64,000 bases of DNA, from NCBI RefSeq assembly GCF_964204645.1, contig NC_134027.1:16888560-16952559 (forward strand). Reading direction: 5' to 3'. Origin of the DNA: Tubulanus polymorphus. Lineage: Eukaryota; Animalia; Nemertea. Within the stretch, counting starts at the first letter, position 1; every line of letters starts with the position of its first letter. Both the position numbers and the translations under genes were made by a program. Below the pieces are notes generated by a model. That model was not told where the DNA came from. It ran no database searches and saw nothing but the letters and a program-made list of their open reading frames with translations. Below are positions 16,601-57,611 of the stretch, piece by piece.

Positions 16601-16629
16601 ATTTTTAAAAAATAAATTAATAAAAATAA

Positions 16630-16707
16630 TGAATATCTAGAATCCGAAATGACTTATCTGGACAATTTATTTGCTCCGCATAGATAGGTAAAGTAGTGAG
16701 ATATTCA
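16630..16707 (+). ncRNA. Conserved structured motif, copy in B
   Basis: tgaatatc/gatattca outer stem, acttatct/agataggt, ggacaa/ttgctcc; conserved ATCCGAAATGAC and AGTAGTGA. Confidence 0.55.
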
Positions 16708-17022: not shown

Positions 17023-17560
17023 TTATTATAGAAATATTTTTACTTTCAATATTTGAAAATGTTATAACCCCAGTTGATAATAATGTCATAAATCCACCTA
17101 ATTGAAATGATAAATATCCAATCCATTTATTTAATTCAGTCATAACTAAATAATCATTTTTTAAATCGGAATATAATCTATTTTCATCTTCAATTGGTAG
17201 TATATAATTACATAATTTACTATAACCTTTTACTACATTTTCTGATATCGCGTCATTAATTCTAGCTGTTCTCGCGGCTTCATAAATCTTAAATAATCTA
17301 ATAATTTCATCTGATTTCATTGTATCTAATTCATTATAAGTTAATTTTTTACCGATAAAATTTTTACATTTTCCAGATGCTATTAATATTTCTAATTGAT
17401 GTTTACAATAAAGATAATATTCATAATTATTATTTGTTGTAACATTATTTAAAGCACCATCATCTAGAGTTAATTTTGTTTCTGTTATTCCTAAATCATC
17501 TAAAGTTTTTTCAATTGGAACATCACCATTTTTAGATTTTATTTTCTTTTCACCTCCCAT
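16970..17560 (-). CDS. Conserved 196-aa accessory protein
   Basis: YEYYLYCKH..LYSDLKNDYLVMTEL shared with 40319..40909. Confidence 0.8.
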   Translation of the reverse strand: MGGEKKIKSKNGDVPIEKTLDDLGITETKLTLDDGALNNVTTNNNYEYYLYCKHQLEILIASGKCKNFIGKKLTYNELDTMKSDEIIRLFKIYEAARTARINDAISENVVKGYSKLCNYILPIEDENRLYSDLKNDYLVMTELNKWIGYLSFQLGGFMTLLSTGVITFSNIESKNISIINEQGGRSEEKTEITEKN

Positions 17561-17577
17561 TTATATAACAAATAAAT

Positions 17578-17864
17578 TAGTTGTGATGTTGTAACTAGAA
17601 TTCAACTAGAATGTAACTAGAATTCAACTAGATTAACAAGCTAGTTGAAATATTGTTGTTTTTGTTTATTTCTTGTTAAATCTAGTTGATTTTTGTTTCA
17701 ACTACTAACAACTAGAATTCAACTAGAATGTAACTAGAATTAAACTAGATTAACAAGCTAGTTAAAATATTGTTAAATCTAGTTGATTTTTGATACAACT
17801 ACCAATAACTAGAATTCAACTAGAATGTAACTAGAATTCAACTAGATTAACAAGCTAGTTGAAT
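17578..17864. repeat. Tandem CTAG-rich repeat tract (ACTAGAATTCAACTAGAATGTA...), about three higher-order units
   Basis: Visible repetition immediately downstream of the ATPase stop. Confidence 0.85.
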
Positions 17865-18473
17865 TTAAATAAATTCATATTTAAATGGGTGTTGTAATCT
17901 AAATGGTAATTTTGATCTTTTAATATTTTTCAACTTATCCATATATTCATTATGTAAATCATGTGGAATAATATCATTTTCCTCAAGTGCATTTTTCATC
18001 GATTTTCTATCTTTATTGTAGAATAAAACTAGAAATCTTATATTCTCCCTAAAGTCTTTAACAATTGAATTATATTTTTGATTTAAAACCCATGTTGTTA
18101 TCCCGAAATGTCTCCCAGAGAAAGCTAAATAACGTAACTCACTTTCTCTAACTTTTGAATCATGTAGATTAGCACAATCATCTATAATGAATAATGTATT
18201 TGATCCTTTATAAATATCAATTGCTATTTTAATACAATTATCTAAATTTTCTTTTACTGTTTTAGGATCTAATATAATGAATTTATTATTTCTAGTAATA
18301 TTTCTATCATAAGTTTGATTAAATTCATATGTTGGGCAAAATAATACTATATTATCAAAATAGTTTTCATAAACAGTTTCTAATAAATTTAATATAAAAT
18401 AAGTTTTTCCACAATTTGTTAAGCCAGATATTAACATATTATGAGGCTCAAATATAAATAATTCTTTATTCAT
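17865..18473 (-). CDS. A32/FtsK-like packaging ATPase
   Basis: GLTNCGKT, LFIIDD, GRH. Confidence 0.92.
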   Translation of the reverse strand: MNKELFIFEPHNMLISGLTNCGKTYFILNLLETVYENYFDNIVLFCPTYEFNQTYDRNITRNNKFIILDPKTVKENLDNCIKIAIDIYKGSNTLFIIDDCANLHDSKVRESELRYLAFSGRHFGITTWVLNQKYNSIVKDFRENIRFLVLFYNKDRKSMKNALEENDIIPHDLHNEYMDKLKNIKRSKLPFRLQHPFKYEFI

Positions 18474-19599
18474 TTATATATTTTTAATTTTACTTGATAA
18501 TATCCATTCATTGAATTTATCTGGCCATCCAACCCATTTTACTAAAGAATATTTTTTTCTTTTAATAGTTTTTGTTTTTAATACTTTTTCAATTTTATAT
18601 TCTTGTTCTAGATTTTCAGTAGTTAAACTTAATTCTTCTTCGTAAAAGTAGCCATCAACTTCTTCACCATCTAAATCTTCTTATTTATAGACATATGGTT
18701 TTGTTGTTATTACCTTTTTATTTTATATATTTCTCTAGTAAAATTTCGATCGTATCCTTTATCAAATATCTTTTTATACTTAGAAATTCTAACATTTTGA
18801 CCAACTTTAAATTTAGGTTCACCAAAATCATCTACAAGAAATGCTCCATATAAATTATTCCAAACAATTTCAGCATTTTCAGGTTTTCTAGCATCAATAG
18901 GTTTCATTCCAATAGAAGAATGATAAGAATTATTATATCCTTCTATCAATTTTGGTAAAACATCAATCCATTTAAAATTATTATTTGCTGTAAAATATTT
19001 CCACATTCTTGTTCTTAATGTTCTATCAAATCGTTCAACAACTGCTGCTTTTTTATCCGATTTTGTTGAAAAATATTTAATATTATGATTGTCTAAGAGT
19101 TCATGAACAAGTGAATTATCAAATTCTTTTCCATCATCAAATTGTATTTTTTCTGGTTTTAGTTTATCATCCGAAAGAAATTTTCTTAAAACATTTGATG
19201 TTTGTACAGCATCTTTTCTATAAAGTGGGAAGCTCCATACATAACGACTAAAAATATCAATTATATTCAATAACCAACAATAATCATCATTATCTTTCTT
19301 AACATTTTTCATATCAATTAAATCTCCTTGCCATTGTTGATCTACATAACTTACCATAGTTATACGAGTTTTATATTTTCTAACAATTTTTTATGTGTTG
19401 TGTATGTTGGTTGTTCTAACATAAATTCATTTATATCTTTATATTTAACTAAATTTTGTGGGATTATCTTATCTAATTTATCTTGTTTTACTTGACGCCA
19501 TATATTTTTGGTAGAAGAATAAGCAACCGAACTCTCAGGGTTGTAATATAAATTTCTTAAATATTGTTCTTTAGTATTAGGAGTTTTTTTACCACCCAT
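18466..19599 (-). pseudogene. rve integrase with chromodomain, frameshifted
   Basis: WQGDLIDM, IQFDDGKEF, AVVERF; chromodomain-like tail LVKWVGWPDKFNEWI. Confidence 0.9.
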
Positions 19600-19628
19600 T
19601 TATATATCGTTAATTTTAACTTTATATT

Positions 19629-20874
19629 TTAATATTGAATACTATCCAATTGTGAATTTACAATACTTAATTGTGCATCAGATATAATATAAATGTGCAT
19701 TTTGAAATGTTTGTCTCCTCTTTTCTTTGTCATGAATAATTGTATTCCATCTTTAGTGTTCTGTAGTTTTTTCCCAGAACCATGTAATGAATTATCCTCT
19801 GTTGTTCTAAAATCTAACCATAATGCATATTTATTGCCGGTATAATAATCAATTTGATTAATATTACAATTTTCAAATGATTTTACTTTTTCATTCATAA
19901 AATGTTTTCTAATTTCTGCCCATTGATCAATCATTCTCATTCCTTGACAAAATATTTTATTTGCTATTCCTTCAATAGTTATTTCTACTTTTGTTATTTC
20001 AGGATTATAATAATTATCAACCTTTATTGCGCCATTAGAATATGTTGCAATGGTAAAAATATTAATATACCTTTAATAGATCTTCTTGGGAAGTTAATAT
20101 TCTCATTAATTATTTCATTATTTGCATTAATAGTTACAGTTTTAAATTTATCAATATAATCATATAATAATGAAAATCCTTGATTGTATCGAGTTTGAAT
20201 TGTGCTAGCAATATTTTCATTAGTTACTGTGTCATATTCTAAACATATATTCGATAATTTATAACCCATATCTTTAACAACGCTAGATAATACAATTTCA
20301 TTTACAGGAGCAAATGTTATCTCAAATATAATATCTTCTTGAATTGCGTATTTATATAAAGGTGCATTATTATTTATCAATTCAAAGTCTAATGGAATTT
20401 TATATTTGCTTCCATAAATCGTTTTTATCAAATTATCTGTGGCACGAGTTACTATTGCGTCATTAGCTCCTGATCTTAATTTATTATGGTTTTCCGATTG
20501 AATACCCTGAAATATCATATTATTTCTATTTTCTTTAGTTAACCATAAATCTTTATAATGCATAAATAAATTATAATCATCTAAGAGAAAACTGTTTCTG
20601 GACCAATCGTTATAGTTAATTTTTTAATCAAATATCTCCCAACATTATCAACAACATAATTATTATCATGACCAATTACTTTTATATCAGCTGATAAATA
20701 AATACTATTTGGAACATAAAAAGTATTTTGTGTTAATCGAGGAATTCTAACGTATAAAGTTTCATCGGGATTAATATTAGAAGGGTTATGAGTAATTATA
20801 TGATGTGATCTTTCTGCTTTAATAGCATTAGATATTCTAGAAATCTTAGAAGGACTTATATAACTCCCACTCAT
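19629..20874 (-). pseudogene. Major capsid protein, two frameshifts
   Basis: Three ORF pieces nearly identical to 3870..5117. Confidence 0.82.
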
Positions 20875-20894
20875 TTATTTAACAAAAAAATTAA

Positions 20895-22318
20895 TTATCT
20901 ATTTTCTATTATTTTTTCTTGATATCTTTTTGATATCATATTCACTAACCCAAAAATAATAGCACTTACAACTGTAATTAAAAATAAAATAATATGTTCG
21001 GCAGCAAAGTTAATAATGTTTCCTGCAGATTTCAATATAAAACAAACAATTGATGCAATAATTCCTGGCAATGCTGCAGCAGATTTCTTTGATAGTTCCC
21101 ATAAATATTTTGCTAATTTCTTTAAACCATCTTTAACTTTATCTCGTATAGAATTATTATCATTCGGGGGTTTATCCGGTTTATTGGGAGTAGGAGTAGA
21201 TTTTAAAGCATTTGATATTGTTAGACCAATTGTTGTAAATAACATAGTTACAGCTGTTAGAATTGAAAGAATTGTTATTCCTAATTTAAATAATAATTTT
21301 ATTCTATCTTTTAATGATATCTTTAAAAATAACTTTTAATCTATTAATATTATAATCATATGATTTTAATAATAATTTAATTTCTTCTTTCTGTACTTCT
21401 AAATTATCTTTTAAATTACTAATTTCTTTTTCTAAACGTAATTCTTTTTGCCTATATTCTATTTTATCAATTAATTGATGATCTAAATCAGACTTTATTT
21501 GTTCTATTTCTTTATTTGCATTAGTTAATTCTTTTTCCAAATACATAATTTTTTGATCTCTTATACTTTTATTATGTGCAATTTTATCAGCTTCATTTCT
21601 TATACTAATAATTTCTCTAATTGCTTCATCAGAAAATATATTTAAATCTTCTAATTGTTGATCTGTTGCATCAATTAATCCATTCGGTAAAAGTTTTTCA
21701 ATTGAAACTTTATTTGATTTAAGTTTACTAGTTTTGGAAGTTATATTCTGTTCAGATGTTGTTTCTGTTTCTGATTTCTTTTTGATTATTTCAAATAATT
21801 CCTTAATTCTTTGTTTAAATACGTCTATATCATTATCAGTTAATTCTTGTTTTATAACATCAGTTATTACATTACTATTACTAATTCTTTTAATTCTATC
21901 TGGATCTAATTTTCTCAAAGTTAATTTTGTTATTATTTTTTTTATAAGTGATATCAATATAATAATCATCTTTCAAACGATAATAACATTTACCATTATC
22001 TAAAAATTTTAATTGATCTGCTAAAAGTCCAACGTCTTCATCATTTATGTTAAGTTTAGATTTTTCAATTAAATCTTCTAATTTAGGTATTTTGTTTAAA
22101 TTATCTAAATCTTGTTTTACTAAACCTGGGTCTAAATTTTCAGGATTTAATTGTGATTCTGCATTTTTAATATAATCAGGCATATTTAAATTATTATTAT
22201 ATCCTGGCTCATTACCGTCATTAAAACTTGTTTCACTAAAATCAGGTTGTTGTTCATCAGTTATGCCAGGTTTATCAAAAGGATCCATTCCAATATCTTC
22301 TCCACCTTCTACATCCAT
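20895..22318 (-). pseudogene. Acidic/coiled-coil/TM protein, frameshifted
   Basis: ORFs 21896..22318, 21304..21969, 20895..21245. Confidence 0.75.
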
Positions 22319-22334
22319 TTATATAATAAAAAAA

Positions 22335-23636
22335 TTAAAATTTAAAATATAATATTCCTCCTATAACAATTCCTATACAAGTTAAAGCTAATTTAGTATT
22401 TTCATGTAATTTATTATCATTATCAGTTTTAATTATATCATGTTGAATATTATCAGTTTTAATATTTTCTGTAGTATTGTAATCTTTTATTTTGGAATCA
22501 TTATCCAATTTAATATTCTTAGTTTTAGTTTCTGTTGATTGAATATGTTTTTTATTTTTTTCACCTTCCATTAATTTTGGAGCAGTAATTATCTTTGTAT
22601 TTATATCATTCAATCCAAATGAATTATTTATTGTTGCAGTTTTAATTAGATTATTATAACCAATTATATTTCCCATCTTTAATACTAAATCATTAGAAAT
22701 AATTAATAGATTAGGGCCTATACAATAATTTAGTCTTACATGAGATTTATCTAAATAATTTTGATATCTTACAATGTTTTCTGGAATCGATCTATTTTTA
22801 TCATTATGAATGGAATCTTCAAATAATACTTTGAATTGTTTCTGCGCATCGAATGAAGTGTTATCATTTCCAATTATTGGGGATCTTGTTTCAACTTGTG
22901 CGCCTAAAAAACATATCAAATAAGTTCTAATAGATTGATTTATTCTTTGTATACCTGATTTTGTAAAACCTTCACCATTTTCTAAAATGAAATTAACCCA
23001 ACCATTATTATTATCAATTTTATAATTATGATAAGCTGAAATCCTATGCATATAATCAATTCTTTTTATTTCAAACTCTTCACCAACACCTTGCAATTTA
23101 CCATGCGCTCTAAAATCGGAATTAATATTTATATTAAATTCATTACATATTTTATAAAACTTAGATAGGTTAATATTATTATCCAATTCTTTACAATATT
23201 TAGACCCGGGTAAAGGACATTCTAATTCATTTAATATTATTCTGATTTGAAAATATGTGTGAAATCTAAATATTGTGTGAATTAATTTTAAATCAGAATA
23301 CTTCAAATTTTTATCTAAGTTATTTAAATGATCATTCCAACTAATTCCGCATCCTGTTGTTGCACAATAAACAGCAAAATCTAATTGGTTCTGCCAATAT
23401 TTCATATTAGATTTTACTTTATATATATGATATTCATCTCGAGTAAAAGTAACTTCATATGTATTAAATATATTTTCCATTTTAGAAATAAAAAACTGTG
23501 ATTCAGTAACATAAATTTCTAAATTAGTTAATGAATTTAAAACTACATTTTTATATGTAATATTTTTTTCTAAATCTATTGCAGTAATATTATATTTAAT
23601 TTATTTATTATATAGGAAAGCTTTTGGAAACCCCAT
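22335..23636 (-). CDS. Conserved ~433-aa protein (early stop near 23600)
   Basis: WQNQLDFAVYCATTGCGISW; C-terminal TM. Confidence 0.78.
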
Positions 23637-23652
23637 TTATATAATTAAAAAA

Positions 23653-24083
23653 TCAATAATTAACTAATTCTTTTAATAATTTATCTTGTTCTTCAACTGT
23701 TATATGGCCATTTCAACTTATTATATAATGTAGTGTATTCTTTAATTTATTGATTTCTTTTATATTAGTTTTAATTTTTTTTTAAATTACTTTTTATATT
23801 TAATTTTGAACTTATACCGGTTAAAACACTTGAACTTAATCCTAACACGCCAATTGATATAGCTAAAGGTGTTAATGGACTGAATATTGCTAGAAATGTT
23901 ATAACAGAACTAATTGTAACCACTTATAATCAAATAATATATAATTTTACTTTTTAAATATTTTTTCTCCTTTATCTTTAAGTCAATTTCAAATTCTAAT
24001 ATTTGTTTTTCTAAATATGTTTTTAATTTAGTTTTATTTATATCATGAGGAATAATATCAATACTATCAACTTTATCTTCCAT
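23653..24083 (-). pseudogene. Two-TM membrane protein, disrupted
   Basis: DNA homology to 378..812 and 50329..50761. Confidence 0.7.
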
Positions 24084-24102
24084 TTATTTAGAAAGAAAAT
24101 TA

Positions 24103-24525
24103 CTAATTAGTAAATTTATATGCTACAAATATAACAATAACTGTTCCACCTAAAATCCAAATTATTTCATATTTCTGTTGTTCTTTACTTGGGGTATAAT
24201 AATCTGATAATTTAGGTTTGTATAGATGTAATTTTTCTTTATTGGTTACTGCGTTATATAAACTCATTGCATCATCAACTGATTGAAAATCTCTATGTGA
24301 AATCTTCTGATCATATAATTCTTTATTGATGTAATCCATATAGTTTTGTCTCTTTTCTCTATATTCTTCAGCTGCTTTATTGTATTTCTCTAATGCTAAG
24401 TTATGTCTTTTTTGTTCTGTTAATGAACCATTTTTATCAATATGCTTAAATAAATAACCACCACCAGTAAATGCTAAAGCGTTAACAATTGCCGATCCTA
24501 TAATAGTTATAATTGCAGAAGCCAT
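24103..24525 (-). CDS. 140-aa protein with N- and C-terminal hydrophobic segments
   Basis: MASAIITIIGSAIVNALAFTGGGYLF...; three copies. Confidence 0.82.
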   Translation of the reverse strand: MASAIITIIGSAIVNALAFTGGGYLFKHIDKNGSLTEQKRHNLALEKYNKAAEEYREKRQNYMDYINKELYDQKISHRDFQSVDDAMSLYNAVTNKEKLHLYKPKLSDYYTPSKEQQKYEIIWILGGTVIVIFVAYKFTN

Positions 24526-24549
24526 TTATTTAACAAAAAAATTATGCAT

Positions 24550-24771
24550 TTATATGGGAGGAATATATTTTTGTTTTTCTAAATAATCAATAGTTAAATT
24601 AGATAAAGTAACTGCTAATGTTAATTTTAAAATATCATTTATATCAAATCTATCAACATTAACACTTCCCATTTTGAATACTTTTTTTAATACCATTGAA
24701 TAACCAACAGTTCCAACTGATAGTAATGCGCCATTATATATTCCAGTTATTATCCACTTATTATCACTCAT
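24550..24771 (-). CDS. 73-aa hydrophobic protein
   Basis: Nearly identical to 51229..51450; T-run+TAAATG start. Confidence 0.78.
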   Translation of the reverse strand: MSDNKWIITGIYNGALLSVGTVGYSMVLKKVFKMGSVNVDRFDINDILKLTLAVTLSNLTIDYLEKQKYIPPI

Positions 24772-24813
24772 TTATTAATCAAAAAAATTACTATCTTCAA
24801 AATATTTAGTTAT

Positions 24814-25131
24814 CTAAGTGATGATTAATTTAACATTTATTTCATTACTACTTTTATGATTATCATATATTTCGGTTAATATGTTTTTAATATCATCTAT
24901 GATAAAATCTTCATCTAATTCATAAAATCTTAAAGATTCTCTAATTAAATTAGTAATCTTTTCTACATTTAAAGTTTCTTTATCTATTGTTGTTTCATAC
25001 TCAAATGTTGTTTCATTAGAAAATGCAATATTTTTGATATGTGTAATTACTTCATTAATGTTAAATTTCATTTCTTTCTCCCGTTTAAAATCAAATCCAA
25101 AACATATACTCGGTCCAACAGTTATATTCAT
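24814..25131 (-). CDS. Hypothetical protein
   Basis: Ortholog of 51451..51807. Confidence 0.75.
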   Translation of the reverse strand: MNITVGPSICFGFDFKREKEMKFNINEVITHIKNIAFSNETTFEYETTIDKETLNVEKITNLIRESLRFYELDEDFIIDDIKNILTEIYDNHKSSNEINVKLIIT

Positions 25132-25147
25132 TTATATAGTGAAAAAA

Positions 25148-25904
25148 TTACTCTTTACATCTTATAACTAATTCATAAATTACAGAAAAGTTATTCAAAT
25201 CAATTAAATAACCATTATGATTTCTTATTTCTAATTTAAAATTATTGAAATGTGGAATACAAGGTTTAAAATCACATTCAGTTAAATTATAATATATTTG
25301 CGTTCCAAATTGTTTAACATTTTTTAATGGTAAAATATTTAATATACTACAATTACAAATTGTATCTTTAGTTGCTTCAAATGTTTTTGGTGGGTCAATT
25401 AAATTGCAATAAATATAAAAATGTGTAAAAGGTATTAAGTTTGATCTACCTTCTGCGTATGCTGTAACAATATCTGGGTTAATTCCTAACAGTTTACCTA
25501 AAGGTTTTCTTACTGTAAATTTAAATTGTTCGTCATTAGCTAACCTAATCTTTATTTTATTAGAACTATCACTTTTTAAAATTCTAATACTAAATCCGGA
25601 ATCACTTCCTAATTTAGCTCGAGCTTTTCTATTAATTTCTTGTGCTGATGTATCTAAATTATATAATCCTGGTTTTAGATATAAAAAACCATTTATTCCT
25701 TTTTTTGTAAAAGATTGAAAAAATTAAATGTTCTAGACTTTTATCCGATATATTGTAAAATGAGTTACATAAACTTATATTTACTAATTTCAAATCAACA
25801 CAATTCTTAAATTCTCTATCTAATTGAACTATTAAATTATGTGATTTATAATTTTTAAGTTTTCTAGAATCAACAAATATTCTGTATTCTTTTAATTCTA
25901 CCAT
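25148..25904 (-). pseudogene. Minor capsid protein (penton), frameshifted
   Basis: Ortholog of 51824..52576. Confidence 0.72.
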
Positions 25905-25972
25905 TATTTATAACATAAAAAAATTACCGCTCATCACTAAAAATTAATTTTAATAAAAATTTTCCTAAATAA

Positions 25973-26971
25973 ATGGATGAGAAGATAGCATGCAAAATTT
26001 GTGGTGAACTTCTAAGAAAAAGTAATATGGCTCGACATATGAAAAAACATGAAGAAAATTATAAACCCCCTAAACTAAACTGTCCAAAATGTAATAAATT
26101 ATTCTCAAGAAATTATGTTAAAAAACATTCAGAGAAGTGTAAAATTAATGGTGCAACGGCTAATGTTGATAGTAATGAAAGTAATAGTAATTCTGTTGAA
26201 GTTGAACCTGAAATTATTTGGAAAAGACCTTTCTTATTCTATGACAAGGATAATATAAAAGATCATATCTGTGAGCCTTGTCAAGTAAAATATAGCCCTG
26301 AAAATATAGAAGATTGGGAGAATCATCAATTTCGTAAAGCACATATAGATAAAATTTCTAATAAATTTGAAACTGAATTCAATGAAAGAAAAGATAAATT
26401 ATTAGAAAAAATAAAATATGAGAAAACGTTACCAGATAATAAAGAAACAGTTGAAAAGTTAGAAAAACAATATAATGAATTAACAAGAAAAACATATTAT
26501 TGTATATATTGTAAATTGATTATTACAACAAGTAATTCAAATCTACATAATAGAACAATAAAACATAAAGAAAACGTAAGAAAATACCAAGAGCTTAATG
26601 AAGATCTATTACCAATAAATTATAAACAAAAATGCCCACAATGTAATTACGCGACCTTAAGACAAGAAGGTACTGTGTTATTTTGTAATGAATGTGGATG
26701 GCAAGAGAATTTATGGAGTGAAGAAAAAACTAGAAATTTTCTCATAGATCCAAAATTAAATTATCTAGATGAAATTTTTAAAATATTTTCTATAGAAGAT
26801 CATACACCAGAATATATGCAATGGCTTGAAAAAATTAAAATGATAGAAAATAAAAATGGTGAAATAACTAAAAAAGATATTATAAAAACAATTATTCCGT
26901 CAACATTTAACACAAAAGAAAAGAAAATGTATTTATATTTATTATTTAACGATTATTATGAAAAACCTTAA
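25973..26971 (+). CDS. Multi-zinc-finger protein
   Basis: CKIC..HMKKH, CPKC..HSEKC, CEPC..HQFRKAH, CIYC..HNRTIKH, CPQC..CNEC. Confidence 0.8.
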   Translation: MDEKIACKICGELLRKSNMARHMKKHEENYKPPKLNCPKCNKLFSRNYVKKHSEKCKINGATANVDSNESNSNSVEVEPEIIWKRPFLFYDKDNIKDHICEPCQVKYSPENIEDWENHQFRKAHIDKISNKFETEFNERKDKLLEKIKYEKTLPDNKETVEKLEKQYNELTRKTYYCIYCKLIITTSNSNLHNRTIKHKENVRKYQELNEDLLPINYKQKCPQCNYATLRQEGTVLFCNECGWQENLWSEEKTRNFLIDPKLNYLDEIFKIFSIEDHTPEYMQWLEKIKMIENKNGEITKKDIIKTIIPSTFNTKEKKMYLYLLFNDYYEKP

Positions 26972-27290
26972 ATTAACAGAAGAAGATATGAAAAATATTA
27001 AAAAAATATTCAAACAAATATTAATGTATCATTTGGAAAATAGAATAACAGATTCAATAAATTATGAATTCTTTTTAAATAAGATTGTAAATTATTTAAA
27101 CATAGATATTATAATTCCATTTGACGAATTAACAAACAAAAAGATACAAAGAGAGCGAGATAAAATGTGGAACAAGATAGAACTTTATTTAAATGAGAAA
27201 AAAGAAATGGAAGAAGAAACTAAACAATTAAATGAAAATGAAGAAGCCAATAGTGATTTCGAGTATGATGATATTGATTTTATGTTTTAA
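26958..27290 (+). CDS. Hypothetical protein with acidic tail
   Basis: 110-aa ORF overlapping upstream stop and convergent with pPolB. Confidence 0.6.
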   Translation: MKNLKLTEEDMKNIKKIFKQILMYHLENRITDSINYEFFLNKIVNYLNIDIIIPFDELTNKKIQRERDKMWNKIELYLNEKKEMEEETKQLNENEEANSDFEYDDIDFMF

Positions 27291-30200
27291 TGACCATAAG
27301 GTAATGTTTTTATACCATCATCTAAAATATGCCTTTTATCATCAAATTCAAACTAGTTTTTTCAACTTCATTAATGTACATCTCGTGATCTTCTGATCTT
27401 AAACAATTCATTTTGTGTTTCATTACAATTGAGTTATATAAACACTTTATATAATCTTGAAATTCTATATGTTTATCAACCACATGTTTTGTTATTCCTT
27501 TTAACTTTTTAGCTTCATGATCTTTTGTTCTATAACTATACATTTTACTTCTTATCCCAAGAAATTCAATCATTTCATCACCCCCTAATTCATCTTTAAA
27601 CTTACCAGGAATCTTTTTATTATCATTGCTAAATAGTTCATGATCTTTGGGATAATTGCTAAAATCAAAATGATGTTTTAATGTTTTTAAGTCTTTTGTT
27701 ATGTCATTTGTTTTGATTTTTAGTATGTACGCATCCGTATTTTTTGGATTAATGGGAACCAAGAATTGAATGTTCCATCATCTGTTGATAAATCATAAAC
27801 ATAGTCAGTTGGGTTAGATATTTCAAATAAATCTTTAACTTCTTCAGTTAAATCTTTTTCTACATGCCTTAAATTAAAACAATTTGGTTTAGATTTAATC
27901 AACCCAATATTCATATTGAAGCCTAATGAATTGCATAATATATTCAATCCTGATATAGCAGCTTTTCCTTTTTGAGCTAAAGATATTGTTTTGCGGTTTT
28001 TGAAACTTTTAGTACCATCTGCTGCGTAGAATCCAACGAAGAACCATTTTCTTAAATTATTATTTGCATTTAATACATAATCTGGAACTATCTTTTCTTT
28101 AGTTGAAGTATTACTTTTCACTATTGCATGAATATAGAATTCATCATTATATTCTATAGCAAAATCTTTAGGATTATTTACAAGTATTCTATAAACTGCT
28201 GATGATTTCATAACATCCATGATTCTAAATGTTTTATGTGAATAAACTTCTTCACAGAATTTCTTAATTCTTTCTAATAATTTCAAGTCTTGATTGCATA
28301 AATACCAACAATATTTATTACCCCAAACATAATTATACACACCTGCTGAACCATCTCCCATGAAAAATCCTTTGATAAAATATTCTTTTTCTTCTAATGT
28401 TTCGGGTTCTATATTATAAATATTATCAATAATTTCATCAAATGACATATGATTCATTCTTTGGAAAAATCTTTTATGTAATAATTCATCTCCAATTTTT
28501 ATATCAGTTGGTTTTATTTCATCGCCATTTCGTTTAATTAAACTATGATCTTCTGTAACATCTACAAACCCTAATTTAGTTCTAACTCTATAGATTTTCT
28601 TTGTTTTATGCCTAATAATATTCTTTAATTTTTTCCATCCATTTCTTGTCCAAACATCCATTAAACCATTTATTTGTATTAATTCTTTTTCACCATATGA
28701 AATATAACATTCATTTTGTTTTGGAATTATTTCTGAAATTCTTCTTATCAATATTTTTATCATTAAATTTTAATAATATTGGGGTGTCAGCTGTTACAGA
28801 ATCAAAATATAATATTTCAATATGCTTTCCCCCAAAAAGTGGTTGTAAAACATTATAATAAAAATCATACATTAATAATTTTGATACTTCTAAAACAGTT
28901 GAACCAATGAATATAGGTTCATTAAATTTCATTGACGTTCTTTTTAATTCAACTGCTGTTAAATAATCTTCAAATCTTTTATTTCCTAAATGTCTAGGAC
29001 TTGATTGTAAATGTCTTAATCTTTCAGAATTATTTACTAATTCAATATCATTTCTATTTCTAATATTTTCACATGTTTTACCATAAAAACTATTATTCAT
29101 TAATTTGAAGAAATCTTTTTCAAAATCTGTTTTTGATATGGTTCTCTGTTGAGTATTAAAATCTATATATTTTTCTAACCACTTCGATTGATTAAATTCA
29201 ATGTATCTATGTACTTTCTTTAATTTCATTCCTTGTTTTAGATAAAATTTTAACATTCTATAATGAACAATATAATTGTATTTATTATTTTGAGTAAGTA
29301 TTAATTTTTCTGTAAAAACATGATCTTTCGGTTTTATTTTCTTCTGGTATTCACTTAAATAACTATCATCTACGGTTAAATGTTCTGGGCAATAAGGTAA
29401 GTTTCTTGTTTTAAACTTTATATTTTCAGGATATTCTAAATCAACTACAAAAAAATAACCAATTGGTGCTTCATCTTCTAAACTCATAATTGCGCTTTCC
29501 CAATTAGTTTTATCATCATTTTCAACTTCTGTTAATATAAAATTTTTATATGGTTGAGGTTGCATCATTGCCCAACCATATAAATTATTGGCGTCAATAT
29601 ATAATAATTTATATTCATCATTTGCTCTAAAATACCTATCTCCCATAACACCACTAATTCCACCTCTAATTGATTTTTCAAATAATAAAACCATATCTGG
29701 TTCTTTTAATAAATCTAATTCTACATTTGTATATTTTAAACCACATTGCCAGGTTAAACCAGGACTAGAGTAGCAATAACAAGGATCAACATTAAAATGA
29801 TTCAAATTAACTTCTCTAAATTTTTCAAATATGTCGGCCAATATCATTACATCTGATTTTAAATATAAATCAACTAATTCACCATGATTTTTCATCTTAA
29901 AATGGTTCCAAATATTTAATGTTCTATTAAACACTTCGTCTTTCACATACTCCTCTTTTAATTGATCATAAAATTGATCTTTTAATAATTCTGTTACATT
30001 AAAATCATTGTGTGTTTTATAAAATGAATAAGGAATTGCGCCTTTATATCTCAATAATTTAAAATCTTGGTCATTTGGATAATAATATCGAGTTATTATA
30101 AAATCATTATCAACTAAACTTTTTGATAAATTATCTAATGAACTTGCTAGAAATCTATAAGAATCTAAAAATCTAATGCAACCAAATTGAAATGAAATAT

Positions 30201-32343
30201 AATTTTCAGATGTTTTAGCTAATAGTTTAAAATCATATTTTCTTACATTTACACCATTCATAGCATTATATTCTTCTATTTCTTGATTAATTGCGCCCAA
30301 TTTTCCCGATAATTGTTTTATAATTAGATGGGTATCATAGCCTGATAAATTATGAAATAATATTGGTACGAAATTTACTTTTTTAGCTTGTAAATTGCAA
30401 TCTTCATGAGCAGCTCCACGATATTTTGAATTTAAATGATCATGATCTCTAACTTTTTTATCAAATGAATAAAAACGTTTTTCACAATAACAACAATGAG
30501 TTGCATAATTAAAATCAATTTCATCTTCTTTTGTCATAACTATTCTTTTATTTTTGTTTAATAAATTTGCAAAATCACTTTCTAATTCAATCATTTTATC
30601 ACAAAAATCATTAACTAGATTTTCACCTCTAAAAGAAATATATTGACTTTCATATAATTCAGGATAATTTGATTTTATATAAATTCCACAAGCAGCAGCT
30701 CTTTGATGAACTTTTTTAATTGTGTTTATAATTGGCGGGTCTTGTATTGTGTCTTCATTTAATTCATTTCCTTTATCCATTGATTTTAATAATTGCTTTT
30801 TGTTATATATTTCTTTTCTATCTTGATCAGTTAATTCTTTATTCAACGATTCAAAATCCCCATAAATTACAAATGGAACAATATTCTTAAATTTATGATT
30901 AGTAAATTTCAATTTATAATCTTGTTCTGTTGGCATTATTAATTTACAAAAATCTTTATTATCACATAATTCTTTATGTTTTAATAATGTATTCTCAGTC
31001 ATAAATTTAGATAAACATTTTCTACATAGATAAATTTTATTATGGTGATCACTTTCTGTTCTAAAGAATAAATCAATTTGTTTTAACCACATATAATGTT
31101 CATTTTCATCTTTTTTGTAATATAACAAATCTATAGCATTTTCATCATCATAATATTCTGTTAAATATAAAGCTTCCAATGTATAATCTTTAATATTTTC
31201 ACCTTTTGTCTTTTGTAATTGCATTAATTCAAATACATTTATTTTTAAATTATTAACTTTTTCTATTTTAGGAATCATTTTTATAGTTACTGGATATTGA
31301 TCAATTTTATATAATGTTTCATATTTCCAGTAATTTGTTATTCTACAAACATTTTCCTGTGTTGGATGTAAGCAACTAATAATTGACCATAGAAAACATT
31401 TATTATCTTCATTTTGAATATTTATTACTGCTTTTGTTGTAAATGGTAATTTAATATAAGATGATGCTTTAATATCCTTTTCTGTTGTAAAGTTTGAATC
31501 ATTTTTAAACATTTTATTACTTTTTGATGTTTTATTCCTTTTTGTATTGTAAACATTTAAATCTAAATATATAATTTCATTCAATGTTAAGCCAGAACCC
31601 TCAAAATATCTTTCTTCAATATGACGTTTAAATTCATTAAATATTTTTTCTAACTTCTCTTTTATTTGCGTTTTTGAAATCATTTCTTCATAGAGTGTTT
31701 GAATATTATAATCCATTTTTTCTTCTGACTTTATAAAACATACTTTCCCAGAGATACTAATTTTTGGATATTCAACATCTGTTATCAAATCTAGTATTTT
31801 TTCTATTATTTCAATAAATTTACTATAATCTTCTATTGTTGTACCTTCAAAAAATCTAAATATAATAGCTGCAGGACCAATTTTACTATGTAATGTTTCT
31901 AAAATTTCAATTGTATCTTTTATTTCTAGTGAATCAATGTAATTTCTAACATTTTCCATGTAAGGTTTATTTGAAATGCATTTAGTTTTTGAATTTGGTT
32001 TTTTTACTTTTTGAGGTTTATCGTTAAAATAATCTTTTCCTAAAACATTATTACTCAAATTTTGATGGTGTTTTTGTGATTCGAGATGTCTATTATAATT
32101 CCTTTTTACTATAAATTCATTACAAACTTCACATTTTATTTCATCCACATTCATATTTTCTAATCTTTCTTTTCTTTCATTGGAATTTTCTGGAGTTTCA
32201 AAATCTATTACATTTTTTATATGATTTGCAGTTTTTTCATGTCGTGTTTTATGAGATGTATCGATGTATTTTTTACAATATTGGCAATAATATTGATTTT
32301 TATTAACATTATTGTTTCCTGGCTGGTGTTCATTCTCCCCCAT
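27287..32343 (-). CDS. polB: Protein-primed family B DNA polymerase with N-terminal zinc fingers, containing an intein (frameshifts in and after the intein)
   Basis: FVIYGDFES, FHNLSGYD, YIDANNLYGWAM, KLMNNSFYGKT, YFD|TD; DHDH..CNL zinc motif. Confidence 0.95.
27739..28800 (-). mobile_element. Intein with LAGLIDADG homing endonuclease in pPolB motif C
   Basis: Block A SVTADTPILL, block B VTEDHSL, GFFMGDG and GFYAADG, block F YVYDLSTDDGTF, terminal KN followed by Thr. Confidence 0.92.
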
Positions 32344-32428
32344 TTATTAGGAAAAAAAAATACTTGTGGTGATGAGTGGTGTCTCGCCCTCTCGCCCTCT
32401 GATCTGAAAGCCTACTTTCCCAATTACT

Positions 32429-36878: not shown

Positions 36879-37369
36879 TTAAAATATATACGCGTTCTGG
36901 ACCGTATATGTCGGGATAGATCGACAATGTTCCGATGGCAGTGGATCGCTGTCATCTCTTCGGCAGTATGGACATTCGTAATGTCGTATGTTCTTTAAGT
37001 GTTTAATACACTTAACATGTATCTGCTTTCCGCAGCATGATGTCGGTGTGTCCACGCACACCTCCAAACACACGCAGCACGTAAGGTCGAGAAAAGATCC
37101 ACAAAATGTACACTGGTGGTGCTGCGAATGGTCGATTCCGCTGTAACAGTCATGACATATCGGCGCACGACAACACGGCATCTGATTTTGTGAAATGTGC
37201 AACGCACACCCTCTGCATACATCCGTCTCCCGGTTAAGCGCAGGAACCGAGCCGGTACATCCATCGCGGAAAACTGGATCAATGTGCCCTTCGAGCCCAA
37301 TGATTCTCATCATTGGGCACATGATTTCCGCCTGCTCGCTTTGGTCTTCCGCCGCGTTGTCGAAGCAGG
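36879..37369 (-). pseudogene. Multi-RING-finger protein, 3' part (split by copy C)
   Basis: CRGC..CCRAPICHDC..CTFC; CCVC..CCGKQIHVKC..CPYC. Confidence 0.75.
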
Positions 37370-38093
37370 AGTAATAGGGGTAATGGGCTTTCATACCAAA
37401 GGTCGAACGGTCGAGCTCATTAAAAAACAAAACATTAAAAGTAATTTAAACCAATAATATATTTTCATAATCGTGTGTATTTTATATTATAACTAAATAT
37501 TTATTCTAAGATATCAATAATTTAAAAAGCATATTGTATTAAATCAATTGGTCGCTCCACTTCGCTACCGCTCCGCTCCGCGACCAATTGATTTATTTAC
37601 AATACACAAATTCATATAATCAAATATATTCAAATAATAATAATAATTCTATTATTCAACTGAAATACACACGGTTATGAAAATATATTATAGTTTTAAA
37701 TTACTTTTAATATTTGTTTTTAATGAACTCGACCATTCAACCTTTGATATGAAAGCCCATTACCCCTATTACTCTTAAAATATTCATATAAATGAATAAC
37801 ATTTAAATTGACAGATTATTCAATATAAAAGTATATATTTACAACATTATTTCAATATTTATATTTGTGTGAGTTAGATGTTTAAACATTAAAAGTGTTA
37901 GTAAAGTGTGATTGAAATAATACATGATATAAATCATTGAACTTCTAAAATCAATTTAAAAAAAAAATTTAGTATTAAAATGGAAGCAAATAAGTACTAC
38001 TGTCCAACATGTAATATCAATGTAGATAAATCCCAAAAAGCAAGACACAATAAAACTAAAACACATTTAGAGAATGAATTGAAACTAGAATAT
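37370..38093. repeat. Left TIR of C with fold-back 37370-37773
   Basis: Reverse complement of 56887-57611; internal arms ~110 bp. Confidence 0.93.
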
Positions 38094-41285: not shown

Positions 41286-42371
41286 ATGAAAAAAGAACAA
41301 TATTTAAGAGATTTATGTTATAACCCAGAGAGTGAAGTATCATATTCTAACGTTTCAGAATTATAGAATAAAATTGAATCTCATAATGGTGGTATAAAAT
41401 ATACTGAATTGAAATCATGGTTACAAAATCAACCAACATATCAAATCCACAAGAAAATGGATAAAACTTATTTAACAAGGAAAGTTATGGTTTCATATAT
41501 CGATCAACAATGGCAAGCAGATTTAATTGACATGAAGAACTTAGAGGAATACAACAAAGGATATTTCTGGATATTAAATGTTATAGATATATTCAGTAGA
41601 TACGCATGGTCAATTCCAATCAAAAATAAAACTGGTATAGAAGTTACAAATGCTTTTAAATCTATATTTAAAGAAGCTATTCCAGATAAGATACAATTTG
41701 ATGAAGGTAAGGAATTTTATAACAAACATTTTAAAAAACTATTATCTGATAACGATGTAAAATATTTTTCAACACACTCAGATAAAAAAGCATCTATTAT
41801 AGTAAGATTTAATAAAACATTGAAAACTAGAATGTGGAAATATTTTACTGCTAATGAAACATATAAATATATCGATGTATTAGATGATTTAGTGAAAGGT
41901 TATAATAATTCTAAACATAGTTCTATAAATATGAAACCTATGCAAGCTAGAAAAGAAGATAATTCAGAAATAGTTTGGAATAATTTATATGGAGCATTTG
42001 TTACACATGATTTCGGTGAACCTAAATTTAAAATAGGACAACACGTAAGAATATCTAAATATAGAAAAACATTTTATAAAGGTTATACCCCTAATTCTAC
42101 AGAAGAAATATTTAAGATTAAAAAGATAATATTAACTAAACCTTTTGTTTATAAACTAGAATATCTAAAAGATGAAGCAATATTAGGTTATTTCTATGAA
42201 CAAGAATTATCATTTGTACCAAATCCAGATGAAATAGAATACAAAATAGAAAAAGTATTGAAAACAAAAACTCTTAAAGGAAAAAAGTATTCTTTGGTGA
42301 AATATAAAGGATACGATGATAAATTTAATGAATGGATTTTATCTAGTAAAATTAAAAGAATAAATGAATAA
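41286..42371 (+). pseudogene. rve integrase with chromodomain; early stop at 41364 and catalytic Glu to Val
   Basis: Nearly identical to 7260..8390; IIVRFN instead of IIERFN. Confidence 0.92.
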
Positions 42372-42975
42372 AGATTTATTTATATTTGAACCGCATAATA
42401 TGTTAGTTACTGGAGTAACAAACTGTGGTAAAACACATTTCATATTAGACTTGTAAGAAACTATCTATAAGAATCATTTTGATAATATAATATTATTTTG
42501 TCCTACTTATAAAATGAATAAAACATATAATAGAGATATAGTTAAAATAAAAAAGTTTATTATATTAGATCCTAAAACAGTAAAAGAAAATTTAGATAAT
42601 TGTATAAAAATAGCAATTGATGCTTTTAAAGGATCAAATACATTATTCATTGTAGATGATTGCGCAAATTTACATGATTCAAAAGTGAGAGAAAGTGAGT
42701 TATGTTATCTAGCTTTCTCTGGAAGACATTTTGGGATAACAACATGGGTTTTAAATCAAAAATATAATTCAATTGTTAAAGACTTTAGGGAGAATATAAG
42801 ATTTCTAGTTTTATTTTATAACAAAGATAAAAAATCTATGCAACAATCATTGGAAGAAAATCAAATTATACCTACTGAATTATATGATGAATATATGAAT
42901 AAATTAAAGAATAATAAAGGTTCAAAATTATTACTGAGACTACAATTTCCATATGAATATAAATTTATAAAATAA
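42364..42975 (+). pseudogene. Packaging ATPase, internal stop at 42454
   Basis: GVTNCGKT, LFIVDD, GRH. Confidence 0.9.
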
Positions 42976-46796: not shown

Positions 46797-47779
46797 TAAT
46801 AAACTGTATTTACTCATTAGAAAATGAGGTTTTTAATGTTATCGCTTCTATGGTTATTCGGATATTTCTACTTTTGTTATTTCAGGATTATAATAATTAT
46901 CAACATTTATTGCGCCATTAGTATATGTTGCAATGGTAAAAAATATTAATATACCTTTAATAGATCTTCTTGGGAAGTTAATATTCTCATTAATAATTTC
47001 ATCATTTGCATTAATAGTTACAGTTTTGAATTTATCAATATAATCATATAATAATGAAAATCCTTGATTGTATTGAGTTTGAATTATACTTGAAATATTT
47101 TCATCAGTTACTGTATCATATTCTAAACATATATTCGATAATTTATAACTCATATCTTTAACAACGCTAGATAATACAATTTCATTTACAGGAGCAAATG
47201 TTATCTCGAATATAACGTCTTCTTGAATTACATATTTATATAAAGGTGCATTATTATTTATCAATTCAAAGTCTAATGGAATTTTATATTTGCTTCCATA
47301 AATCTTTTTTATCAAATTATCTGCGGTACGAGTTACTATTGCGTCATTAGCTCCTGATATTAACTTATTATGGTTTTCCGATTGAATGCCCTGAAATATC
47401 ATATTATTTCTATTTTCTTTAGTTAACCATAAATCTTTATAATGCATGAATAAATTATAATCATCTAATGAGAAAACTGTTTCTGGACCAATCTTTATTG
47501 TTAACTTTTTAATCAAATATCTTCCAACATTATCAACAACATAATTATTATTATTACCGATTACTTTTATATCAGCTGATAAGTAAATACTATTTGGAAC
47601 ATAAAAAGTATTTTGTGTTAATCGAGATATTCTAACATATAAAGTTTCATCAGCATTAATATTAGAAGGGTTATTAGTAATTATATGAGGTGATCTTTCT
47701 GCTTTAATAGCATTAGATATTCTATGATTCTTAGAAGGATTGATATAACTCCCACTCATTTATTTAACAAAAAAATTAA

Positions 47780-52976: not shown

Positions 52977-55900
52977 TTAACACGTTAGAATTCTTTTCAT
53001 TATCTCGTCCTCTTTTGTTTCTTCTCTTTTAAATTTTAAGTATTCATCTAAATTGCAACCATAAGCAAATGTATGAATTCCATCATCTAAAATATATCTT
53101 TTATCATCAAATGGGTTTAGACTTATCTTTTCAATTTCTTCAATAAACATTTCATGATCTTCAGATCTTAAACATCTCATCTTATGTTTTCTAACTTCTT
53201 TTTTGAATATACAATTGATGTAATCTTTGAAATGAATATTCTTTTCTACTACACTTTTGGTTATTCCTTTTAACTTTGTAGCTTCATGTTCTTTAGTTTT
53301 ATATGAATACATTTTAGATCTAATACCAATGAATTCAATCATTTCTTCACCAACTAATTCATCTTTGAATTTACCGGGAACTTTTTTATTATCATTGCTA
53401 AACAATTCATGATTTTTAGGATAATTACTGAAATCAAAATGATGTTTTAATGTTTTTAAATCATCATTTATGTTATCAGTTTTTATCTTTAATATGTAAG
53501 AATCGGTATCAAAATATAGGATTTCTATATGTTTTTCTCCAAAAAGTGGTTGTAATATATTATAATAGAATTCATACATTAGTAATTTTGATAATTCTAA
53601 AACTGAAGCGCCAACATAGATTGGTTTATTAAATTTCATTGATGTTCTTCTCATCTTAACTGCGGCTAAATTTTCATCAAATATTCTGTTACCAATGAAC
53701 TTAGGATATGTTTGTAAATGTCTAATTCTTTTACCATTACTGACTAACTCAATATCATTTCTATTTCTAATATTTTCACAAGTCTTACCATAGAATGCAT
53801 TATTCATTAACTTGAAGAAATCTTTCTCGAAATCAGTTTTAGCTTTAGTTCTCTGTTTGGTGTTAAAATCTATATATTTTTCTAACCACTTAGATTGGCT
53901 GAATGAAATATATCTATGTACTTTTTTTAGAACCATTCCTTGTTTTAGATAAAACTTCAACATTCTATAATGTACTACATAATTATATTTATCTTCTTGA
54001 GTTACCATTAACTTTTCTGTATGAATATGATTTTCGGGTTTAATTCTTTTTTGGTAATTTGATAATTCTTCATGAGTTACAGTTTTATGTTCTGGACAGT
54101 ATGCTAGATTTCTAGATTTAAATTTTTTATCTTCAGGATATTCTAAATCTACAACAAAGAAGTAACCAGTATCTGAATCATCTGCAATATCTAGGATTCT
54201 TTTCTTCCAATCAAATTTATCATTATTTTCATTCTGTAAAACTTCAGTTAATTCAAATACTCCATAAGGTTGTGGTTCCATCATTGCCCAACCATACAAA
54301 TTATTTGCATCTATATATAATAACTTATATCCGGGGTTATCATTTACATTGAAATATCTATCACCTAATACACCTGAAACTCCTGCTCTTATAGATTTTT
54401 CAAATAATAGTAATTGATCTATATTTGTTAACAAATCCATTTTTATATCTGTAAATTTTAATCCACAATCCCATGTTAATCCTGGTGATGAATAACAATG
54501 ACAAGGATCAATATTGAAATATTTTAGGTTTACATCTCTAAACCTTTCGAATATATCGGTTAATGATAATACATCTGATTTTAAATATAAATCTACTAAT
54601 TGCCCATGATTTTCTATTTTGAAATGATTCCAAATATTCAATGTTCTATTATATACTTCATCTTTAACATATTCATTTTTTAATTCATCATAGAATTGTT
54701 CTTTCAATAATTCAGTTATGTTAAAATCATTATGATTTTTATAGAAAGAATATGGAATTGCTCCTTTATATCTCATTAATTGAAAATCATCATTATTTGG
54801 GTAGTGCTGCTTTAATATTTTTAATTCATCATCAACTAATGATTTTGATAAGTTATCTAATGAACTGTTTAAAAATCTATATGAATCTATAAATCTTAGA
54901 CACCCAAATTGGAATGATATATAATTCTCAGATGTTTTAGCTAACATTCTAAATTTATAAGTTGGTATTTTATCTTTTGATCTATTTGAATTTAATCTTT
55001 CTATTTCATTATTAATTTCTTCTATTTATGGCATAACTGTTTGATAAATAAATGCGCATCATATCCAGATAGATTATGAAATATAACTGGTACAAAGTTA
55101 ATTTTCTTAGCTTGTAAGTTACAATTCTCATGTGCGGCGCCTCTGAACTTTCCATTCAAATGATCATGGTCTCTTACTTTTTTATCTTTATAATTTAATA
55201 TCTTTTCACAATAATAACATTTACCTGCTAACACAAATTCTTCTTTATCTTTTTCTGTGATTATAATTTCTATATTTGTATTCAATAATTTACTAAATCT
55301 TATTTCATATTCAATTAATAAGTCACAAAAATGATTGATAACATTTTCATTTCTGTAATGATAATATTCACTTTCAATTAGTTCTGGATAATCAGATTTT
55401 ATATATAACCCGAAAGCAGCAGCTGATTGATGAATCTTTTTAATTGTATTTGTTTTTGGTGGTTCATCTGAAAAATTATTTTCATTAGAATTTAATTTCT
55501 TTCTTTTATAATATATTTCTTTTCTATCTTGATCAGTTAATTCTTTATTTAATGATTCAAAATCTCCATATATTACAAATGGTACTTTATTTTTGTAATC
55601 ATATTTTTTTAATTCTAATATTTTATCCTTTTCATTTGGTAAAACTAATTTACAATAATCATGATCTTCACATAATTGTTTATGATTTAATAATGTACTT
55701 TCATTACTGAATCTATGTAAACATTTTCTACAAAGATATATTTTATGGTGATCATTTTCTGATTTAAAAAATAAATCTATTTGTTTAATCCACATATAAT
55801 GATTCTCATAATATAATATATCTATAACATCGTTTGAATCATAATCTTTTGATAGGTATAAAGGATCTAATGTATAATGTTTTATATTGTTACCTTTTGT

Positions 55901-57000
55901 ATTTGGTAATTTGATTAAATCAAATACATTTATTCTTAAATTATTATCTCTTTCTATCTTTGGGACGTTTTTAATTCTAACAGGATACTTATCTATCTTA
56001 TAATTATTTTCAAATGGTTTATAATGAGTTAATCTAAAACTATGTGTAATATCTTCTGTTGGGTGTAAACAACTTATTATAGCCCATAGAAAACATTTAT
56101 CATCTTCATTTTGTATATTTATAACAGCATTAGTTTTAAATGGTAGTTTAATATAACTCGATGCTTCAATATCTGGTTCTTTATAATATAATACATTATT
56201 TTCATCTATTGGTTTTGATTTAGTTAACTTATTATATTTTGTGTTATAAACATGTAAAGTCATAAATATTATCTCATCAAATATTAAACTAGATCCTTCA
56301 AAATATTTCTCTTCTATTTTAGTTTTTACTTCATTATAACATTTATCTAATTTATGATCTATATGTTGTTTAGATATAATATGTTGTGAATGAGAATTTA
56401 TATTATATATTGGTTTATCTTCAGATTTTATGAATTTAACTTTAGAAGATATACTTATTTTAGGATATTCAACATCAGTTATTATTTTTATTATTTCTTT
56501 CATATTTTCTAAATGTTTTTTATTTTCTTCTAATGTTTTTCCTTTATGAAATTTAAACTCAATAGCTGCTGGACCAATATCACTTTTAAATGCTTCGGTT
56601 ATCTCTATATCTTTTTTATTATCTAATGAATTACATTCTTACATCTTCCATGTATGGTCTTTTATTGTTTAATTTATGCTTTTAATTGTCTTATGTTTCT
56701 TATCGTTATCATTATCAAAATAATCTTCACCTAAAATATCATTATTCTTATTTCTAATATGACTTTTAGATTTTAAATGTTCTTTATAATATCTTTATCA
56801 CTGAATGATTGATTACATGTATCACATTTGTATGTTTCTTTTTCATTCTTTAATTCATCTAATTTAGTTTCTAATATATCATCTTTATATTCTAGTTTCA
56901 ATTTATTCTCTAAATGTGTTTTAGTTTTATTGTGTCTTGCTTTTTGGGATTTATCTACAATGATATTACATGTTGGACAGTAGTACTTATTTCCTTCCAT
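52977..57000 (-). pseudogene. polB: Protein-primed PolB, intein-free, broken by stops/frameshifts
   Basis: FVIYGDFES, FHNLSGYD, YIDANNLYGWAM, KLMNNAFYGKT, YFDTDSY. Confidence 0.95.
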
Positions 57001-57611
57001 TTTAATACTAATTTTTCTTTTTTTAATTGATTTTAGAAGTTCAATGATTTATATCATGTATTATTTCAATCACACTTTACCAACACTTTTAATGTTTAAA
57101 CATCTAACTCACACAAATATAAATATTGAAATAATGTTGTAAATATATACTTTTATATTGAATAATCTGTCAATTTAAATGTTATTCATTTATATGAATA
57201 TTTTAAGAGTAATAGGGGTAATGGGCTTTCATATCAAATGTTGAATGGTCGAGTTCATTAAAAACAAATATTAAAAGTAATTTAAAACTATAATATATTT
57301 TCATAACCGTGTGTATTTCAGTTGAATAATAGAATTATTATTATTATTTGAATATATTTGATTATATGAATTTGTGTATTGTAAATAAATCAATTGGTCG
57401 CGGAGCGGAGCGGTAGCGAAGTGGAGCGACCAATTGATTTAATACAATATGCTTTTTAAATTATTGATATCTTAGAATAAATATTCAGTTATAATATAAA
57501 ATACACACGGTTATGAAAATATATTATAGTTTTAAATTACTTTTAATGTTTTGTTTTTTAATGAGCTCGACCTTTCGACCTTTGGTATGAAAGCCCATTA
57601 CCCCTATTACT
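56887..57611. repeat. Right TIR of C with fold-back 57208-57611
   Basis: Reverse complement of 37370-38093. Confidence 0.93.

Follow-up and report, generated by a model that had tools for sequence, protein, structure and literature searches.

The locus described here, in which the ends of several elements can pair with themselves, bears on how an integrated Polinton exits the chromosome and takes up protein-primed replication again. The window, the whole stretch of 64,000 nucleotides from the nemertean Tubulanus polymorphus that was analysed, contains four Polintons (A, B, C and D), and imperfect fold-back ends are found in A, C and D. According to the original prediction the two arms of such an end are actively homogenised, implying either a hairpin or panhandle replication intermediate or excisable mini-elements.

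The hallmarks of Polinton/Maverick elements were found in the window: pPolB, a retroviral-type integrase, an A32-type ATPase, TIRs, a size in the 15-20-kb class and a 6-bp target-site duplication (TSD). Element C (37370-57611, 20.2 kb) has 725-bp TIRs, the left one (37370..38093, forward strand) being 98% identical to 56887-57611, and a TSD whose left copy (37364..37369, forward strand) matches 57612-57617 at 5 of 6 positions. A profile scan of the ORFs gave an rve integrase above cut-off and a Pox_A32 match (A32-type packaging ATPase) in A, B and C, a DNA_pol_B_2 match in B (E 1.9e-19) and C (E 2.8e-14), and a weak chromodomain match on the integrase of A and C. In C the integrase with its weak chromodomain match lies at 41457..42371 and a piece of the packaging ATPase at 42514..42975, both on the forward strand. 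The pPolB gene of C is interrupted and lies on the reverse strand, with the polymerase piece carrying the DNA_pol_B_2 match at 52977..54947 and a 5′ piece at 55022..56503 that comprises a putative terminal-protein region, a vOTU-like Cys motif and an endonuclease VII-like domain. A major-capsid-like ORF (46854..47759, reverse strand) has a weak Capsid_N match (E 0.004), under the curated cut-off. No Pfam match to an adenoviral-type maturation protease was obtained among the ORFs scanned, and the element copies are degraded. The closest integrase relative named from a eukaryote is nemertean (55%). An insert within C (44548-46867) has inverted repeats of about 400 bp (99%) and a GIY-YIG-like ORF.

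Element B (15896..32428, 16.5 kb) is a Polinton with a simple 68-bp TIR, a perfect TSD (6/6) and no inner copy of the terminus, and it serves as an internal control. It also has an intein/LAGLIDADG-like ORF beside pPolB and a VLTF3-like ORF (27720-28763 and 26958-27290), and a long run of the CAT trinucleotide is found just outside its left end (15568-15778). No core genes were detected in element D (about 4.1 kb), the right end of which lies just past the window edge and consists of two tandem units (locus L061, 4635-4904). The 11 nucleotides between these units are the reverse complement of the left host flank of D, which points to copying between ends at this locus.

The left end of C is a fold-back unit of 404 bp (37370..37773) made up of an outer arm, a loop with a GC-rich central hairpin (37540..37595) and an inner arm, directly inside which lies a spacer (37774..37799, forward strand) that is conserved judging from per-position frequencies. 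A second 404-bp unit forms the right end of C (57208..57611), the right unit of A (11348..11672) has 325 bp with the central hairpin deleted, and the left unit of D (60214..60309) has 96 bp. All four are present where they had been predicted. The arms, which had been claimed to match over about 25-33 bp within an element and to differ between elements, match perfectly over 26 bp at both ends of C, 24 bp in A and 32 bp in D, and they differ among C, A and D at positions 11-20. The claim that B is without a fold-back also stands, and it extends to its relatives, with a partner arm in 0 of 30 B-type ends. The statement that the inner arm consistently has GGTTGA where the outer arm has GGTCGA is correct as a rule (position 35 is C/T in 166 of 183 units) but not without exception (C/C in 6 of 183), and in D the change is present but in the second repeat. 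Self-alignment of the units gives 76-90% identity, and a single long, imperfect stem is the predicted fold of every unit tested (z -15.7 to -27.4), with no shuffle as good.

A 14-letter arm pattern has 2500 matches in the genome, a count that includes some simple B-type ends, and 10 control matches. The C unit is also covered in raw Illumina reads from a separate 2026 run with the same species label, including outer arm, loop, inner arm and body junction, the 150-nt reads being shorter than the 404-bp unit. The fold-back is therefore not an assembly artefact. One sub-pattern gave 583 spacer-linked inner arms and the B-type motif gave 438 matches (about 400 B-type ends). The 2500 arm matches and the 438 B-type matches mark a very large Polinton expansion, which on the large contigs listed is concentrated in clusters near the middle. 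When outer ends from contig C1 were sampled in order of position, 43 of 49 had fold-back and spacer; the other six are one vestigial unit, one solo-like unit, both ends of a simple-ended element of 2.2 kb and two ends with a deletion or truncation.

The termini compared were collected from the top matches to C, D and locus L070, the first 100 pattern matches on contig C1 and 60 sites on contigs C1 and C2, the latter picked partly for rarer variants so that terminus counts are not genome frequencies. This rendered 206 inner-arm calls, 178 of them unique and 157 with a partner arm. Two of the 21 unique inner arms without a partner in the stretch examined were false motif matches and the others were interrupted, truncated or out of range. 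With loci added later, the final set holds 183 units, which are 95-462 bp long, belong to five loop families and all come from one genome; it leaves out locus L127 and rows with out-of-register outer arms.

Homogenisation of the arms, as originally predicted, passed a covariation check in this set. The hypervariable positions 11-20 are identical between the arms in 152 of 183 units, compared with 56 on average and never more than 71 when arms were shuffled 5000 times inside their loop families. There are 20 concordant variants of these positions, nine of which recur in both arms across two or three loop families. In 39 disjoint pairs of close relatives whose outer arms show at least two differences, the inner arm has changed with the outer at 127 of 147 sites; in 26 pairs it has done so at every site. 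Some pairs are 93-98% alike in loop and body yet differ at 6-7 sites in both arms. Neither independent compensatory point mutation nor loop swapping can yield such a pattern, and both were rejected, loop swapping because of the pairs alike in loop and body. Short terminal tracts are thus copied, and arm positions 11-26 are co-converted. Excess concordance starts at about 0.9 for positions 11-14, drops to about 0.45-0.5 for 25-26 and is close to zero for 27-28, in a profile from an earlier set in which five rows were left out and L125 was included twice, once reversed.

Template switching is reported to even out the arms of inverted repeats without selection (PMC8604942). The fold-back could be a functionless quasi-palindrome that arose as a one-off inverted duplication of the end, was kept matched by template switching and was shortened by symmetric loop deletions. 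The converted tracts are indeed anchored at the terminus, and both the B-type ends and the 2.2-kb element (L088) exist without a fold-back. The direction of copying can be judged from discordant ends with known variants on both arms, where the outer arm is the newcomer in 7 of 7 (six elements; four ends are single-site). This weakly supports copying from outer to inner arm, the direction expected if the polymerase switched its template to the nascent 5′ arm (mechanism in PMC8604942). Plain tract copying is insufficient, however, since positions 30 and 38-39 covary while mismatches persist at the interleaved positions 27, 28 and 35; the pair must be under selection as well.

The mismatches themselves are informative about the strand that pairs. 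No unit has arms identical over 45 nt (0/183) and inner-arm mismatches are kept in 183 of 183. Among transition mismatches at positions 25-45, 604 have C in the outer and T in the inner arm or A in the outer and G in the inner arm, and 46 are the reverse, these counts from the 183 units not being independent. Mismatches of the larger class are G·T wobbles on the strand that has its 3′ end at the terminus and A·C on the opposite strand, and in 181 of 183 units the 3′-terminal strand has the more stable fold of the two, with a mean advantage of 8.3 kcal/mol. Counted as common mismatch columns, the five families favour 3′-strand wobble by 13:1, 7:0, 7:0, 4:0 and 3:0, with three columns shared. 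The T's of the inner arm are derived, because B-type ends have C at positions 28, 35 and 43. Among rare alleles in the arms of 57 units of the 404 family, A>G, the change that would break pairing of the 3′ strand, is depleted relative to T>C (5/72 versus 19/64, p=0.0006), with no depletion in loop and body (30/118 versus 23/89, p=1). A general strand-biased mutation was rejected on account of these unbiased loop and body alleles, though they are perhaps partly post-insertion; a strand-biased mutation limited to viral replication is a less probable source of the G·T bias.

Neither the one-strand G·T bias and the arm-specific depletion of A>G, nor the retention of inner-arm mismatches in every unit, nor the presence of the fold-back on 43 of 49 position-ordered outer ends is predicted for a functionless quasi-palindrome, which is already weakened as an explanation and which we consider unlikely. 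Summed over three of the readings discussed here, it is a firm inference, and probable, that it is the 3′-terminal strand which pairs with itself and that this pairing is under selection. The proposed fold-back intermediate in replication is thereby supported indirectly and narrowed to the 3′-terminal strand.

The ITR of AAV has the layout A-loop-A′-D, and the order of arm, loop, arm and spacer resembles it. Rolling-hairpin replication of the AAV type, with hairpin transfer (flip/flop), is nevertheless most improbable here, and hairpin transfer is largely refuted for the integrated copies. Flip/flop of the loop was not found: of the units that could be scored, 59 of 59 (404-type), 21 of 21 and 26 of 28 have one orientation, and a reversed L125 row and one local loop inversion account for the remaining two. 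The spacer is followed by outer-type letters in 6 matches and by inner-type letters in 583, and the six consist of four inner arms converted up to position 28, one chance flank and L127. No Rep/HUH domain was found among the 45 ORFs scanned. A fixed orientation is in itself compatible with hairpin priming, since some parvovirus ends are reported to occur in one orientation only (PMC8242256).

Excision of the unit as an independently mobile mini-element, the other implication of the original prediction, is very hard to reconcile with the data. A stand-alone unit with a perfect 6-bp TSD does exist (L312, G000:C1:29366492-29366758, 267 bp), as does a similar but truncated one (L070), but a multi-copy mobile family does not appear; each is found once among 40 scored matches in a search that covered the 269-type loop best. 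The units with outer and inner arms run into the conserved spacer, whereas both stand-alone units lack the spacer and have outer-type arms at both ends, with an outer-to-inner switch in the left arm (near position 46 in L312). Solo products are possible because the left-outer and right-inner arms are direct repeats, and from their sequences L312 and L070 look like solo-LTR-like deletion products of recombination. Locus L127 (1437-1790) is of another kind, with a spacer on both sides of the unit and, beyond the outer arm, a copy of about 68 nt from the interior. This is the form expected of a dimer, a circle junction or a snap-back extension left unresolved; the junction is a single rearranged copy and is not bridged by the pieces listed.

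The fold-back families probably retain protein priming. The motif EGSG, a putative linking motif of the terminal protein going by our reading of 10.1101/2024.03.18.585575, is kept in 29 of 30 of their pPolB copies and is also present in B; the vOTU-like Cys motif is found in 27 of 30. Loss of protein priming was rejected on these grounds, although a structure model of the terminal-protein region (pLDDT 35) is too low in confidence to confirm the fold. The pPolB gene adjoins the inner arm and spacer at 24 of 30 loci. The endonuclease VII-like domain was rejected as a fold-back-specific resolvase because it is found in B and C alike, and no protein marks the fold-back families.

A retained terminal protein would suit a more local role, in which the 3′ fold-back rebuilds a duplex origin for that protein and mends eroded 3′ ends but primes no synthesis in the body. 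The same 3′-strand bias and fixed orientation are predicted, a single overshoot-like locus was seen, and in Streptomyces Tap is described as repairing truncated ends on the fold-back and halting at its boundary (PMC5449611). Such a role requires a stop signal, however, and repair copies from inner to outer arm whereas the discordant ends weakly suggest the opposite; with the terminal-protein fold unconfirmed by the model, we regard this explanation too as an unlikely one.

Left and right ends can be compared in 32 pairings by TSD, one of which (L125/L126, 1.2 Mb apart) is spurious, and most have matching ends. Two collinear elements (L370-L373) are different, with left and right unit types or variants that differ under one perfect TSD and with arms that are matched within each end in one element and nearly so in the other. 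Pairing of the left with the right end is thus not obligatory, and the ends of one element are semi-independent. The strand transferred by DDE/retroviral enzymes is the 3′ strand, the same strand that folds here, the stem stops exactly at the host junction, and 6-bp TSDs are found in about 30 paired ends. The fold-back might therefore provide a duplex end on single-stranded DNA for excision or insertion of the transferred strand, but simple-ended relatives integrate with perfect TSDs, and we judge this role improbable. The inner arm as a store of nucleotides lost at integration was rejected because the bases beside it vary between families.

The reading we prefer, with a probability of roughly 40%, is that the ends serve as snap-back primers, by which a displaced or excised single strand makes its own second strand. 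Protein-primed strand displacement or excision would yield the single strand, and its 3′ end would find its partner in the inner arm, at a distance of 100-450 nt. The resulting 3′-OH, perfectly paired over 24-27 bp, would face spacer and body. The folded 3′ end would be extended by pPolB, and we infer that the join would then be cut where the 3′ end originally lay, in that same strand, so that the unit would not be inverted. The original 3′ end is the natural cut position of a retroviral-type integrase. The short terminal gap would be patched by terminal-protein priming or at integration. New variants would enter on the outer arm and reach the inner arm through polymerase template switching, while the retained C-to-T changes would stop the inner arm from acting as a true end.

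Self-priming is favoured because folding leaves the 3′-OH recessed and the 5′ strand as a long overhang. Recessed 3′ ends are reported to be good DNA primers in phi29 and ends with 5′ single-stranded overhangs to be poor terminal-protein origins of markedly lower activity (PMC4150772), which also counts against a rebuilt origin. Arm covariation, the wobble bias of the 3′ strand, the depletion of A>G in the arms, the conserved junction spacer, the spacer-unit-spacer order in L127 and the non-obligatory pairing of left and right ends count in the same direction. On the other side, no extrachromosomal or hairpin-joined molecule was seen in the Illumina reads (no pile-up of read ends; outer flanks heterogeneous) and L127 is single and unbridged. 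About 400 B-type ends and the 2.2-kb element with a TSD (L088) manage without a fold-back, which is an add-on and not essential, and there is no fold-back-specific protein. The interleaving of positions 30 and 38-39 with fixed mismatches and the reliance on 7 ends for the copying direction also count against self-priming. A wider proposal, rather unlikely on the present sequences, is that one Polinton lineage replicates in a hybrid mode with 3′ hairpin self-priming, integrase resolution without inversion and end patching by the terminal protein. If true, this mode would bridge protein-primed and hairpin-primed DNA viruses and explain how an integrated, protein-less strand re-enters replication.

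In the standard Polinton model the opposing TIRs anneal (bioRxiv 10.64898/2026.07.28.741278; PMC4046053), and direct evidence for the panhandle intermediate is described as still lacking (PMC11886824). The elements studied here share pPolB, the rve integrase, the A32 ATPase, long TIRs, the 6-bp TSD and a 5′-AG end with Polinton/Maverick elements (alpha-adintovirus-like). In contrast to the simple TIRs of the panhandle or racket model, an extra inverted copy of the terminus makes each end self-pairing, and left and right ends can differ. Terminal hairpins of parvoviruses (AAV ITR; heterotelomeric left ends) likewise have a mismatched 3′ hairpin that could self-prime, but here there is a double-stranded integrated element with pPolB, no flip/flop and no detected Rep/NS1 HUH nuclease. 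The Tpg/Tap telomeres of Streptomyces also belong to a terminal-protein replicon in which the 3′ strand folds on its own palindrome and end repair is possible; they differ in having unrelated proteins, a 13-nt palindrome I instead of a loop of 100-450 nt, a location at chromosome or plasmid ends and no integrase (PMC5449611).

Closest in kind are the terminal palindromes of Halocafeteria seosinensis virophages (subtypes 1, 2, 5 and 6) and PLV subtype 4, for which hairpin priming has been proposed (bioRxiv 10.64898/2026.07.28.741278). Both systems have a palindrome at the TIR tip beside the TSD in an element with an RVE integrase. According to the parts of that preprint available, its palindromes are 52 nt long in subtype 5 and preferentially in non-pPolB elements, and no test of arm covariation is reported, whereas those described here are imperfect fold-backs of 95-462 bp in pPolB Polintons, with a putative terminal-protein motif kept, arms co-converted and wobbles on one strand. 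The link to non-pPolB replication genes does not hold here, pPolB being adjacent at 24 of 30 loci. No such ends are described in the available parts of PMC8502044 and PMC11296320. In the literature searched, which excluded subscription papers, Repbase entries and preprint supplements, terminal palindromes were found only in the Halocafeteria preprint and no report of co-converted fold-back ends in pPolB Polintons was found; the population-level arm covariation and the strand asymmetry appear to be new. Scans of viral contigs for fold-back ends in other hosts gave no matches, and 80 metagenome loci with related integrases had no recognisable terminus and hence are uninformative on spread to other hosts. 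Hundreds of natural variants in this genome single out one strand, a paired length and a junction, with a sister family that lacks the fold-back as control. The proposal made for protist virophages thereby becomes a strand-specific, testable prediction for pPolB Polintons.

Some further features of the termini deserve mention. Locus L082 has a vestigial unit of 45 bp (689-733) in which an inner arm of 13 nt still has the spacer next to it. Hypervariability is likewise seen in the simple B-type ends (L192-L221; 15896-15945 in the window), where it affects positions 7-28, and a 7-nt direct repeat present twice at about 31-45 has copies that vary in concert. In 8 of 8 pattern matches (L302-L309), and also in L073, L074, L105 and L124, the inner arm is followed 49-50 nt further in by a third end, which is B-like and points inward. 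This suggests that a simple terminus is the older structure and that the fold-back unit was placed outside it.
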